32,000 bases of DNA, taken from contig DIXU01000004.1 of the NCBI GenBank assembly GCA_002436105.1, positions 40,166 through 72,165 of the forward strand, written 5' to 3'. Shown here piece after piece: positions 11,577 through 20,701 of the stretch. How positions within the stretch are numbered: position 1 is the first letter of the stretch; every line of letters begins with the position of its first letter. The DNA is from Candidatus Aminicenantes bacterium UBA6072 (lineage in GTDB: Bacteria > Acidobacteriota > Aminicenantia > UBA2199). Made by a program: the position numbers and the translations under genes. A model generated the notes under the pieces. It worked only from the letters and a program-made list of their open reading frames with translations, made no database searches and had not been told where the DNA came from.

Positions 11577-11606
11577 TTGCTTATTCAGGTAATTGTTCTA
11601 TATAAT
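11577..11606 (+). promoter_or_regulatory. Sigma70-type promoter of the 11627-20701 operon
   Basis: TTGCTT (11577-11582), an 18-nt spacer and TATAAT (11601-11606). AGGAGG at 11617-11622 precedes ATG 11627. Confidence 0.6.
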
Positions 11607-11626
11607 GGCAAACTTCAGGAGGATCA

Positions 11627-18900: not shown

Positions 18901-20701
18901 CTTGCCTGCACTTATACGCTCCCTGGAAAGGCATGAGCGGGCAGTCATCAATGTGTCTATTACTGGGGATGGGCGAAAGGCCTTATCGGGGGGCCAAGAT
19001 GGACTCTTGTGCCTATGGAATCTACAGACCGGCCGATGCCAAAAGATTCTGGGACAAGGGATGCTGGTGGCCATGACTCTGGATGGACATCGCGCTCTTT
19101 CTGCCAGTGGAAATCGAACTCTTCGAGTTTGGAATGTCAAGACTAGTCAAAATATTGAGCTTTCGGAAGTTCATCGGGAATCAATTCGATGCCTGGCCAT
19201 GACTCCGGATGGAAGTTTGGCGGTATCCGGAGGATTTGATCAGACGGTTTGTTTATGGGACATAACGTCGGGCCGATGCCTGAATGTTCTGGAAGGCCAT
19301 GATGCCGGGGTTATCTGCGTTGCCATGACTCCGGATGGAAGACGGGCGGTCTCTGGAGATGACTTGGGGACTTTTCACGTTTGGGATCTGGCGAGCGGGC
19401 AATGTGTGCGGATATTGAAGAACCCACATGGAGGTGAGTCGGGTGTCAGTGTGACGCCCGACGGAAGATTGGCTCTGACGGGTGGAGGTATGGCGGCTCG
19501 TTTGTGGGATCTGGACAGTGGGCAATGTCTGCACACTCTCGAAGGGAAACATGGGAATGTATCCTGTGTGGGGCTGACAGCCGACGGACGACGGGCGGTG
19601 ATCGGAAGCTGGAAGTCGATCCAAGTGTGGAATCTCGAAAATGGCCAGTGCCTGAGAACTCTGAATGACCATTATCGCCCTGTGACTTGTGTGGCTTTTT
19701 CGGCGGATGGGAGGGAGTTAATCTCGGGAAGTAAAGATGGCACCCTCAGGGTCTGGAACCTGGAAAATGGACAAACCAAATCTACCCCCCTGGCCCACAG
19801 CCACTATGTGCGTGATCTGGATATCACCCCAGATGGAAGATATGCCGTTTCGGGGAGTTGGGATCAGTCTCTTCGTGTGTGGGAGATTGAAAGTTGCCAA
19901 CGGGTTCTGATCATCGAATGTCAGACACGCTTCGAGAGTGTCTGCGTTACACCGGGGGGGCATACCGTGGTTACAGGAGGATGGAAAGCCCCCAGCGTTC
20001 CAATTAAATCGCCGCTTCTGGTTTGGAATCTTGCAAACGGCGAATGCCTCTATGCTCATGAATGTGGCGATATCAGGTGTGATCAGATCTGGAGCGTCTG
20101 CATGACTCCAGATGGGCAGTGGATCATAACGGGTGATGACAATGGCCATATCAAGGTTTGGGATTTGGAGAGCGGGCGGTGTCTCAAGACTCTAGAGGGG
20201 CACAGTGCCAAGGTTTGGTGTGTCAGGATGATGGCGGATGGACGACACATAGTATCAGGAAGCTGGGATATGTCCGTGCGGGTGTGGGACCTCGACACCG
20301 GAGGATGTGTGCGGATTTTGAGCGGAAAGATTGAAATCTGGGGGGTCAGTGTAACTCCCGATAGCCGATATCTTTTGTCGGCCGGGTATGGAACCCTGCT
20401 CATTTGGGATCTTGAGAGTGGGCAATGCCTCGGCCAATTCGTCGGGCATCCCTCATGCATTAGCGATGTGGTCGTAACCCCCAATGGGAGATATGCGGGC
20501 TCTGTGGGTGACAAAACCCTAAGGATCTGGGATTTGGCCACTAAAGAATGCACGGCCCTTTTTTACACGGCGGATCAACTATTCAGCCTAGCCATCTCTC
20601 CATCCGGATCGGCCATCGTCTGCGGGACCATTGGGGGGGAGGTCATCTTTCTTGAGCCCTGCAACCTACATTTGGGGATGGATGATAATCCATCGTGTTA
20701 A
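15965..20701 (+). CDS. DUF4062-like N-terminal domain + NACHT/STAND P-loop NTPase + about 14 WD40 repeats (NWD1/TEP1-like architecture; candidate Avs/bNACHT-like sensor)
   Basis: ATG 15965 is preceded by AAAGGAGAGGAG; the track start TTG 15950 is less likely. N-terminus is YIFISSTFNDMHAERDYL..DLRWGVSE. Walker A is LTAEAGMGKSMLLARW and Walker B is IIVLDALNQLD. I counted 13 clear blades of the type LRVWNLENG / VRVWDLDTG plus a terminal one. It is a paralogue of the 3499 gene (shared LDALNQL and WLP....K.IVS). Confidence 0.92.
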   Translation: MVKFEQVEWPKAYIFISSTFNDMHAERDYLVKNVFPRLLEWCEERKIRMVDIDLRWGVSEDDSTNRNVVKTCLKNIDKCRPFFICLLGQRRGWVPRKEDISSETYQEFSKISQYAGNASVTEMEILHALIDPFHRAKRLGFIHNKKSGFDPVQHALFYLRDNTYLDSLPSFPGLLRKTFTNEWIENQTERQIADTELKRWRERLIPATGKLVRHYSARWNPEATSPELRLPLVCPSQGDKAMESWRRQWSLAGIALQSHEREIPSSMQEEANLFNAAFTQGRLSDFKTDSQELGEVIFADLKRAIGERFHKYILAVESRGGQDGTLQRELDQQEQFLWSNSEGFIERSGDFTLLDAYAADESRKLFVLTAEAGMGKSMLLARWVDRFRGIVNPKQRESLHFRFIGQSDQSTSFYPLWRSLLQEIQQQTEKLWDEKVKDAEGREIQATAIPVDPHKLRDSLPDILQNIGSQGKTIIVLDALNQLDTGLGELNWLPDELPEGIKMIVSFKRDPDNPNAASFFESLKGRAELAEIRPFDSIKDRERLIGKYLEQYLKQLEPIYVKALLEIEASKNPLFLKIVLGELRIFGSFHNIKEKIYSDFGQDPISAFIGVLKRLETDTAHTAIATKMAVPVIFGLLAHARSGLSANELTQMLEASLEGEKRELLDSVRETVHFYLRQLRPYLARKEGRFDIFYESFRLAILGRYVKEGGEDHKSGFYKGECPHQTTDMLTLTSQAWHGILADHFHGLPLWQKQDPEVKGGSGGASEEPQADYCDHPNMRKVSEQPFHLTMSGDWARVEVTLCDLWFVEAKVRLGLVFELQEDYRLALNTLPEMESVLRDRREHQERIDNWTKAVLAHARTWSQRRERMSRGETISEPEPMLPIPPTLCRMWSQEEIDSECQRRSDHPKRLDRLKAFSEFLNTEYYAFLDFGSRVGFVLQHAFNRYPTGPVHTQATKEMGKIHTPLLLRHWSADATTNSLPALIRSLERHERAVINVSITGDGRKALSGGQDGLLCLWNLQTGRCQKILGQGMLVAMTLDGHRALSASGNRTLRVWNVKTSQNIELSEVHRESIRCLAMTPDGSLAVSGGFDQTVCLWDITSGRCLNVLEGHDAGVICVAMTPDGRRAVSGDDLGTFHVWDLASGQCVRILKNPHGGESGVSVTPDGRLALTGGGMAARLWDLDSGQCLHTLEGKHGNVSCVGLTADGRRAVIGSWKSIQVWNLENGQCLRTLNDHYRPVTCVAFSADGRELISGSKDGTLRVWNLENGQTKSTPLAHSHYVRDLDITPDGRYAVSGSWDQSLRVWEIESCQRVLIIECQTRFESVCVTPGGHTVVTGGWKAPSVPIKSPLLVWNLANGECLYAHECGDIRCDQIWSVCMTPDGQWIITGDDNGHIKVWDLESGRCLKTLEGHSAKVWCVRMMADGRHIVSGSWDMSVRVWDLDTGGCVRILSGKIEIWGVSVTPDSRYLLSAGYGTLLIWDLESGQCLGQFVGHPSCISDVVVTPNGRYAGSVGDKTLRIWDLATKECTALFYTADQLFSLAISPSGSAIVCGTIGGEVIFLEPCNLHLGMDDNPSC

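Follow-up and report, generated by a model that had tools for sequence, protein, structure and literature searches.

Do three adjacent genes in a 32,000-nucleotide stretch of Candidatus Aminicenantes bacterium UBA6072 (contig DIXU01000004.1, positions 40,166 to 72,165; this whole stretch is the window below) make up one conflict system, and which of them belong together? A preliminary description had placed three large same-strand open reading frames (ORFs), here called P1, P2 and P3, behind one good promoter, and read them as a candidate undescribed defence operon with the architectures ribokinase-like(?)-AAA-2xRyR, SLOG-SLATT and DUF4062-NACHT-WD40. All three ORFs are real genes; full-length relatives number more than 1300 for P1 and more than 700 for P2. 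We show that P1 and P2 form a pair that is conserved and translationally coupled, and that P3 is an exchangeable cassette inserted exactly behind the P2 stop codon. With a confidence that falls somewhat short of even, we favour reading the locus as an anti-phage, abortive-infection-type conflict locus that would use NAD+-derived ADP-ribose-type nucleotides in a Thoeris-like manner, with an NLR-like protein as sensor and NADase.

P1 and its SLOG partner

P1 is the constant element of these loci. A scan of one genome per species found a P1 relative in at least 513 species, and the best 80 loci were analysed, with ORFs called and iterated local hidden Markov models built for each domain. These loci come from Chloroflexota, Acidobacteriota, Aminicenantes, delta-proteobacteria, Planctomycetota, Bacillota, Ignavibacteriota and several archaea; the distribution is patchy and takes in both bacteria and archaea (more than 10 phyla), and identity between phyla reaches up to 73%. 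The ribokinase-fold/AAA+/RyR architecture is alike in 78 of the 80. P1 stands almost always beside TIR/SLOG-fold genes: a SLOG, TIR or DUF4062 gene lies within three genes of it at 65 of 78 loci, and six of the 13 loci that lack such a neighbour are truncated contigs. At a distance of six or more genes in the same loci, the counts were 0/282 for SLOG, 0/282 for DUF4062 and 3/282 for TIR. Where the gene at position +1 to P1 could be scored (70 loci), it was SLOG in 33, TIR in 13 and DUF4062 in four.

For the most part the SLOG partners stand alone, at about 190 aa the equivalent of the N-terminal domain of P2, and the gap between P1 and SLOG is usually -4 to +24 nt. About 12 P1 loci have a SLOG-SLATT fusion like that of the window; the commonest arrangement elsewhere is P1 with a stand-alone 190-aa SLOG protein and a transmembrane (TM)-TrkA_N-RyR protein. 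The conserved core is P1 plus the SLOG domain, and SLATT is an optional fusion. A TrkA_N membrane protein is the next gene in 14 loci, usually with a C-terminal RyR domain too (Pfam 1e-11, 4e-12). The form with a channel-like two-TM N-terminus, TrkA_N (RCK) and usually a C-terminal RyR domain was seen at L008:13228-15042, L015:13241-14032 and about 20 other loci; TM-TrkA_N-RyR genes immediately follow the gene for the stand-alone SLOG protein and take the place of SLATT there. RyR is found in three protein types of P1 neighbourhoods: P1 itself, the TM-TrkA_N-RyR proteins and small stand-alone proteins. At three loci (L018:12704-14770, L021:12682-14718, L025:12804-14687) the +1 gene encodes a RelA/SpoT nucleotide pyrophosphokinase with TPR and an LSDAT-type SLOG domain, and at L009 it encodes a NUDIX hydrolase, followed by a DUF4062-STAND gene and then a TrkA-RyR gene. 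An apparent P1-SLOG fusion at L079 was rejected: two ordinary genes overlap there, in a high-GC frame.

Seen from P2, the picture is looser. A P2-profile search yielded 80 metagenomic loci, and the counts refer to the 21 whose flanks reach at least 3 kb each way: within three genes of SLOG-SLATT, TIR was found at 11, P1 at six and DUF4062 at five, with at least one of these at 16. The SLOG-SLATT module therefore goes with TIR-fold genes whether P1 is present or not.

P1 belongs to a family of 1,666 clusters (50% identity) at E <= 1e-3 among 1.84 billion representatives. For its N-terminal domain, Foldseek with the AlphaFold model returned 187 PDB matches at E <= 1e-3, the top ones all PfkB kinases (tagatose-6-phosphate, fructose-1-phosphate and ribose kinases; E 3e-10, probability 1.0, TM-score 0.42-0.59); residues 1-440 have no Pfam match, PfkB (PF00294) included. 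Among 75 members, G15, D16, D20, G49, G50, D151, D209, R211, D271, E276 and W279 are near-invariant, and D20, G49-G50, D151, D271 and E276 sit at ribokinase substrate-binding positions. P1 thus shares with the ribokinase/PfkB kinases the fold and the topological placement of the N-terminal Asp (D20), the GG pair (G49/G50) and the C-terminal acidic residues (D271...E276), but the family has TANDLRRTE where ribokinases have NXXE and DPxGIEG where they have DTxGAGD, and the domain is 430 aa long, carries insertions and is always joined to an AAA+ domain. Going by the model, we call the P1 N-terminus a ribokinase fold, not a PfkB family member.

The AAA+ domain looks active by its motifs. K469 (Walker A), D523 and E524 (Walker B) and R596 (the Arg finger of DFxSRL) are invariant in 75 of 75 members, and the family motifs GxPGSGKS, hhhhDEFD, FAGGT(S) and DFxSRL vary little or not at all. 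Pfam AAA gives the window protein 21.0 bits against a cut-off of 21.2, AAA models match 25-27 of 42 relatives, and a single-sequence PDB search with this region found nothing.

As for the RyR repeats of P1, Pfam RyR (PF02026) hits the window protein at 2.2e-21 (76.3 bits, cut-off 27.4) in two stretches and hits 41 of 41 full-length relatives, and phmmer matches them to the R12 repeats of animal RyR3/RyR2 at E 1e-17. RyDEP, a group of phage RyR-domain proteins that cleave or sequester 2' and 3' cyclic ADP-ribose (2'cADPR, 3'cADPR), contacts ADP-ribose (ADPR) through H75, W78, H100 and D117 (PMC13232231). Both P1 repeats show the +3/+25/+17 spacing of these four residues, as a comparison of spacing and not a direct alignment. 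The His/Asp pair of repeat 2, which in the RyDEP glycosidase is the catalytic pair, is kept in 72-75 of 75 members. At position 838 most relatives (51 of 75) carry His, and the window protein carries Asn. With RyDEP, P1 shares the PF02026 family and, in repeat 2, His/Trp/(His)/Asp at RyDEP spacing. RyDEP is a small homodimeric phage counter-defence protein, whereas P1 is cellular, joins two tandem repeats to AAA+ and kinase-fold domains, and is encoded in host TIR/SLOG operons. We found no P1 relatives in IMG/VR viral contigs or INPHARED phages and no viral structural analogue of its ribokinase-fold domain in BFVD, and rejected P1 as a phage counter-defence gene.

Two variants of P1 were seen alongside the common form: a subfamily of about 700 aa (P0344, P0346, P0356, P0362) has the ribokinase-fold and AAA+ domains without RyR, and in one relative (P0042, 1251 aa) precomputed Pfam annotation shows a CHAT protease domain in addition.

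P2 is a candidate SLOG-SLATT membrane effector. In its AlphaFold model (pLDDT 87.7) the top Foldseek match of the SLOG domain is B. subtilis YpsA (2nx2, E 4e-5, TMt 0.67), with the Moco carrier protein 2iz7 also matched. YpsA of B. subtilis is the founding member of a SLOG clade; the placement of P2 in that clade rests on structure, because the window protein has no Pfam SLOG-family match. The SLOG motifs are equally kept in 36 stand-alone and 89 SLATT-fused homologues. Both TM pairs (271-322 and 429-481) are helical in the model. With the SLATT models of Pfam (PF18181 / PF18184) and NCBIfam (NF033634 / NF033610), the first module matches SLATT_3 (Pfam 2e-4, 22.1 bits against a cut-off of 26.3; NCBIfam 2.5e-6) and the second SLATT_1 (Pfam 15.6 bits against 26.3; NCBIfam 2.2e-7), the NCBIfam matches being below cut-off as well (30.9 against 41, 27.6 against 45); the NCBIfam scan of P1-P3 gave nothing but these sub-threshold SLATT matches. 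Of 50 P2 relatives, 40 match SLATT_1 at E <= 0.01, 20 SLATT_3 and 22 DUF4231.

SLOG and SLATT were reportedly defined computationally by Burroughs et al. in 2015, and P2 is the type of SLOG-SLATT pairing behind the name SLATT, with a predicted role as a nucleotide-gated membrane effector. Our literature search found no experimental study of a YpsA-like SLOG domain fused to a double SLATT.

P3 and the exchange site behind P2

P3 has the order effector, STAND NTPase and C-terminal repeat sensor (the WD40 array is the presumed ligand sensor), which fits the architecture of Avs and bacterial NLR-like proteins; against the PADLOC STAND/Avs models it gave no match. DUF4062, also named NIR, is a TIR-like NADase that yields ADPR and nicotinamide and serves as an Avs-type effector (bioRxiv 10.64898/2026.05.01.722283, 10.64898/2026.09.04.749371). 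Avs2, Swarozyc, Vulcan, Vesta and Evangelion all use it as effector, human TEP1 carries an active copy, and the catalytic Glu residues of characterised enzymes include E97 of KpSwz and E108 of PsAvs2 (2026 preprints). In P3 the SVTEME motif at aa 117-122 offers a conserved Glu candidate, and a profile of the DUF4062 family matches human TEP1 (11gz_A, 1.5e-27) and the Swarozyc protein KpSwz (10wc_A, 7e-4). By its sequence P3 appears to be of the kind since described experimentally in 2026, the Avs-type proteins with a DUF4062 NADase effector. Its N-terminal DUF4062, central STAND and C-terminal repeats are those of the Avs/NLR-like group (PsAvs2; human TEP1, NWD1/2 and NPHP3), and it shares the TEP1/NWD architecture. 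PsAvs2, however, has TPR repeats and acts alone by NAD+ depletion, whereas P3 has WD40 repeats and recurs beside SLOG/RyR signalling-type genes.

The standing of P3 at this locus became clear from contig L161, the closest relative, whose P1 is 95% identical. L161 is collinear with the window at 93% nucleotide identity over 10535-15909; the homology breaks off at the P2 stop codon and resumes at 21235. Behind its P2, L161 carries a different DUF4062-AAA_16-WD40 gene on the opposite strand. Beyond P3, the window holds a relic of the P2 3' end (21153-21229; local score 49, shuffle maximum 13) that marks the far boundary of the inserted P3 cassette. L161, for its part, has a 98-nt relic of a P3-like 5' end behind P2 (14296-14393 in L161 coordinates), and the two relics together mark an exchange site for DUF4062-STAND-WD40 genes. 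P3 has a GC content of 0.49-0.54, as against 0.58-0.62 for P1-P2. From the breakpoints, the replacement gene in L161, the P2-end relic and the lower GC of P3, it follows that the sensor-like gene is exchangeable beside a constant P1-P2 core. The STAND gene upstream of P1 also differs between the window and L161.

How the preliminary description fares can now be said. Nearly all its domain calls were borne out, the tentative ribokinase-like one among them: for P1 by the Foldseek match, the invariant Walker and Arg-finger residues and Pfam RyR; for P2 by YpsA as the top Foldseek match, the four TM segments and, at family level, SLATT_1 in 40 of 50 relatives; and for P3 by Pfam matches to DUF4062, to NPHP3_N/AAA_16/NACHT and to WD40. 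The three large same-strand ORFs and their gaps are present as claimed, and the claimed lack of a convincing internal terminator agrees with our finding none in P1-P3. A conserved three-gene operon must be given up, as P3 is an inserted cassette at whose site L161 has another DUF4062-STAND-WD40 gene in reverse orientation. The synteny of homologues that the description had proposed to check holds when seen from P1 (65 of 78 loci beside SLOG, TIR or DUF4062) but not when seen from SLOG-SLATT, where P1 is near only six of 21 loci. Its "one good promoter" is a possibility: the motif and a ribosome-binding site are there, but the -35 fit is poor and a better-scoring site lies further upstream, as detailed next.

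Layout and surroundings

The features of the locus are collected in Table 1. The gaps are 9 nt between P1 and P2 and 51 nt between P2 and P3 when measured to the P3 ATG, the likely start, which lies downstream of a AGGAGAGGAG ribosome-binding site. The promoter-like site in front of P1 falls within the block that is 93% identical to L161. It went unlisted in a promoter/terminator consensus scan because its -35 hexamer, TTGCTT, fits at only three of six positions; that scan gave promoter-like and terminator-like sites not in excess of shuffled sequence. The region's best-scoring promoter-like site (11002-11030) lies in front of a 167-aa multi-pass membrane ORF (11037-11540) directly 5' of P1 and inside the block shared with L161; this ORF is without a family match and not recurrent at other loci. 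Expression of P1-P3 from a single promoter is possible by these signals.

Table 1. Positions of the features of the locus, in window coordinates
Feature	Position	Strand	Basis or detail
Second NLR-like gene, DUF4062-NACHT-TPR	3469-7041	+	1190 aa; DUF4062 1.6e-11, NACHT 1.9e-5, TPR_12 5.5e-72; SFTEFE motif
Promoter-like TTGCTT-18-TATAAT	11577-11606	+	20 nt 5' of P1 start, then AGGAGG ribosome-binding site; read in sequence
P1 ORF	11627-14266	+	879 aa, ATG start
P1 ribokinase/PfkB-fold domain, aa 9-440	11651-12946	+	AlphaFold model (pLDDT 84.1) and Foldseek
P1 AAA+ ATPase domain, aa ~441-700	12947-13726	+	weak Pfam AAA / AAA_22 / nSTAND_NTPase5; invariant motifs
P1 Walker A GSPGSGKS	13013-13036	+	motif
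P1 Walker B VFFDEFD	13184-13204	+	motif
P1 RyR repeat 1, aa 718-790	13778-13996	+	H728, F731, H753, N770
P1 RyR repeat 2, aa 803-876	14033-14254	+	H813, W816, N838, D855
P2 ORF	14276-15913	+	545 aa, TTG start 9 nt past P1 stop codon
P2 YpsA-like SLOG domain, aa 7-205	14294-14890	+	motifs GITGHR, LAEGADR, WDG, GGTAE
P2 first two-TM SLATT module, aa ~250-345	15023-15310	+	TM 271-295, 296-322 (hydropathy)
P2 second two-TM SLATT module, aa ~400-535	15473-15880	+	TM 429-450, 453-481 (hydropathy)
P3 ORF	15950/15965-20701	+	1583 aa from TTG, 1578 aa from ATG at 15965
P3 DUF4062/NIR domain, aa 9-125	15989-16339	+	Pfam DUF4062 (PF13271) 5.7e-13, 49.3 bits, cut-off 24.7
P3 STAND/NACHT NTPase, aa 352-550	17018-17614	+	NPHP3_N 2e-9, AAA_16 2e-7, NACHT 1.6e-3; Walker A GMGKS near aa 375
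P3 WD40 beta-propeller array, at least 10 repeats	18920-20653	+	Pfam WD40 1.5e-85, 10 stretches; many propeller families
Relic of P2 3' end with in-frame TAG	21153-21229	+	63/77 nt identical to 15827-15903

The wider window holds further genes of interest. The second NLR-like gene is preceded directly, at 767-3376, by a gene for a double-AAA protein (AAA and AAA_lid_6; weak PADLOC IetA-like matches), and the two may be another two-gene unit. At the position of this NLR-like gene, L161 carries a DUF4062-WD40 gene 46% identical to P3 of the window. A tRNA-Lys (CTT) gene on the - strand (474-548) lies at the left edge of a variable, GC-mosaic region (GC 0.41-0.69); the match of L161 to the window covers 643-778 and is lost beyond, and the tRNA could be the boundary of a tRNA-associated island.

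Upstream of P1, at 8720-9742 on the - strand, there is a divergent phosphoribosyl-pyrophosphate (PRPP)-synthetase-like gene, whose match to B. subtilis Prs (E 1e-41) is weaker than orthologues usually give; it is conserved in L161 and does not recur close to other P1 loci. In phages, NAD+-reconstitution pathways include a Prs-like ADPR pyrophosphokinase, and a link of this gene to ADPR handling is conceivable. On the other side of P3 lie genes for an APH-family phosphotransferase (21343-22443) and a stand-alone Macro-domain protein (22662-23231; Pfam 1.8e-31), both conserved in L161. Macro is an ADP-ribose-binding fold.

A proposed pathway and its rivals

Is the locus a known system? PADLOC v2 assigned no system to P1-P3 or to nine other window ORFs; for P1-P3 it gave only STAND_TPR at E 0.026 and a WD40-driven HEAT-ARM match. 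Literature searches likewise found no P1-P2 pair, so that the claim of the preliminary description that the three-gene set is no named system stands; the pair is covered neither by a paper among those searched nor by a PADLOC model, though an earlier computational mention may exist. Among the papers searched, none pairs SLATT with "RyR domain" or Thoeris with ribokinase. A CD-NTase (SMODS) cyclase is absent from all window ORFs scanned with Pfam or PADLOC, and a CBASS reading of SLATT was rejected, as no cyclase is present.

Thoeris is among the nearest known relatives in logic. A survey of that group describes type I as TIR with the SIR2-SLOG protein ThsA, its SLOG domain being the 3'cADPR sensor; type VII as TIR with the SLATT protein ThsH, a cADPR-responsive effector; and type X as TIR with an ion channel; the survey deliberately excluded TIRs within Avs proteins (bioRxiv 10.64898/2025.12.03.692087). 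Like Thoeris, our locus sets a predicted TIR-fold NAD+-consuming enzyme beside an effector with a SLOG sensor or a SLATT or ion-channel membrane module, and would follow an abortive-infection logic; P2 has the signal-binding domain (SLOG) fused to SLATT, and genuine TIR_2 proteins adjoin P1 or SLOG-SLATT at related loci. Unlike Thoeris, the window is without a canonical TIR (P1-P3 and the further window ORFs that were scanned match neither TIR nor TIR_2), its TIR-like domain being the DUF4062 of a 1578-aa NACHT-WD40 protein; SLOG and SLATT are joined in one protein; and nothing in Thoeris corresponds to the 879-aa P1, which of all components is the most conserved here.

We favour, as said at the outset, an NAD+-based and Thoeris-like conflict locus. 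On this reading the P3 WD40 array would recognise an invader protein, whereupon NACHT would oligomerise and switch on the DUF4062 NADase, converting NAD+ to ADP-ribose or a derivative. Nucleotides of this type would be bound by the P2 SLOG domain and the P1 RyR repeats, and P1 might act as an ATP-driven oligomer that relays the nucleotide or processes it chemically, either by phosphorylation of the ribose through the ribokinase-fold domain or by trimming of a cyclic form through RyR repeat 2, so setting the threshold or identity of the signal. Ligand-bound SLOG would drive SLATT oligomerisation in the membrane, membrane integrity would be lost, and the infected cell would die or arrest before phage release. 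In many relatives a TM-TrkA_N-RyR channel-like protein would take the SLATT role, and TIR-STAND proteins the NADase role. The specific job of P1 is the weakest link of this mechanism. The general idea of the preliminary description, a nucleotide-signal-linked membrane effector with a STAND sensor attached, is supported; beyond what it proposed, our analysis suggests that the signal chemistry can be narrowed to NAD+/ADP-ribose derivatives.

Several findings weigh against this pathway. Characterised DUF4062 enzymes yield plain ADPR and defend by NAD+ depletion, and were not shown to signal (2026 preprints). The ribokinase-fold domain of P1 is without the canonical NXXE and GAGD motifs and without a Pfam PfkB match; the window P1 has N838 where most relatives carry the phosphate-binding His; and the SLATT scores of the window P2 are under the curated cut-offs. 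Not every SLOG-SLATT needs P1, since P1 is near only six of 21 such loci and TIR near 11. Co-transcription of P3 is not conserved, because P3 is a recent insertion whose L161 counterpart is on the opposite strand. The enrichment next to known defence genes that the preliminary description had looked to is weak as well: the 140 other P1 neighbours, classified with PADLOC and Pfam, are mostly transporters, dehydrogenases and regulators with a handful of defence-like genes, so that a defence-island setting does not emerge. Finally, distant plasmid-borne P1 relatives look solitary. One, 31% identical, is on plasmid pA of Methylobacterium sp. FF17 (NZ_CP107533.1 1567-4299), where it adjoins a very large protein of the SIR2 family, another NADase fold, and a transposase; others were seen on plasmid pCF009-b of Clostridium estertheticum CF009 and on a linear plasmid of Streptomyces, and cultured sources of the family therefore exist.

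A possible objection is that two or three independent systems merely share a recombination hotspot, with P3 and the DUF4062-NACHT-TPR protein as autonomous NAD+ depleters, P1-P2 separate with a trigger of its own, and no molecule exchanged between them. The P3 cassette with its P2-end relic and lower GC, and the reverse-oriented replacement in L161, are what such a hotspot would leave; the DUF4062-STAND-TPR protein PsAvs2 defends alone in E. coli (2026 preprints); and SLOG-SLATT and P1 are each without a STAND neighbour at many loci. We nevertheless think this explanation unlikely. Only TIR, DUF4062, SLOG and TrkA-RyR are enriched beside P1 and the rest is housekeeping, a pattern that is specific and not island-like. 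Moreover, DUF4062-STAND or TIR-WD40/TPR proteins are found within P1 gene strings with gaps that are often overlapping or tiny, and DUF4062-STAND genes are wedged into these strings at L008, L009, L026, L061 and L073 with gaps of -22 to +16 nt, at L009 between other components (NUDIX / DUF4062-STAND / TrkA-RyR). A mirror-tree comparison of P1 and DUF4062 distances points the same way with a weak correlation (r 0.28, Mantel p 0.007), and carries little weight because shared phylogeny could give such correlations.

P1 and the small SLOG protein might instead be a safety or recycling device for NADase immunity and no relay, the RyR repeats clearing stray cADPR-type signals and the ribokinase-fold/AAA+ part recycling ADP-ribose, so that auto-activation is prevented or NAD+ restored after an alarm. 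The RyDEP-type catalytic His/Asp pair kept in RyR repeat 2 of nearly all members would suit this role, as would the variety of NADase-type genes beside P1 (TIR, DUF4062, and SIR2 on the Methylobacterium plasmid) and the divergent PRPP-synthetase-like and Macro-domain genes that flank the locus and are conserved in L161. P1, however, is coupled most tightly to SLOG and membrane effectors and not to NADase genes, a scavenging enzyme would not usually take the form of a large AAA+ oligomer, and no NAD-salvage enzymes recur near P1; we hold this role to be distinctly unlikely. Very improbable, to our minds, is a non-immune circuit for physiological nucleotide signalling or programmed cell death in filamentous or multicellular bacteria, with STAND proteins as intracellular signal integrators (in ion homeostasis via TrkA_N-RyR proteins, for example, or developmental lysis): the hosts are mostly Chloroflexota, Acidobacteriota, delta-proteobacteria and similar STAND-rich lineages, P1 neighbours are largely housekeeping, PADLOC has no match and YpsA acts in Bacillus cell division, but the patchy bacterial and archaeal distribution resembles horizontal transfer, the sensor gene is swapped as a cassette between near-identical strains, and TIR, DUF4062, SLATT and NUDIX are hallmark conflict domains.

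Returning to the NAD+-based pathway, what would it mean? As far as we have checked, the ribokinase-fold/AAA+/RyR hub and its near-obligate linkage to TIR-fold/SLOG genes are undescribed, the SLOG-SLATT pairing itself having reportedly been anticipated computationally by Burroughs et al. in 2015. If the pathway is real, the hub would be a large unstudied family, present in more than 500 species of more than 10 phyla; bacterial immunity would gain a new signalling layout, in which NLR-like NADases do not just drain NAD+ but supply an effector downstream that senses nucleotides; and the P3 swap would be a small-scale view of sensor replacement beside a constant signalling core. The pathway would also give bacterial RyR repeats a cellular role, following the finding that phage RyR proteins bind or cleave cADPR isomers, and, with TM-TrkA_N-RyR proteins encoded in the same operons, would open to testing an old question, whether RyR repeats that govern ion channels respond directly to ADP-ribose-type ligands. 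Prokaryotes might thereby have a route from NLR to second messenger to channel.

A further step, which we hold only as a long shot, is that host-encoded RyR domains are native receptors or processors of NAD-derived immune nucleotides, and that the hub converts the output of NLR-type NADases (DUF4062-STAND or TIR-STAND) to a modified, for example phosphorylated, ADP-ribose messenger that opens SLOG-SLATT pores or RyR-bearing TrkA_N channel-like proteins. Such an arrangement would represent a prokaryotic forerunner of the cADPR-ryanodine receptor axis and of the plant axis that runs from TIR-NLR through a small molecule to a helper channel.

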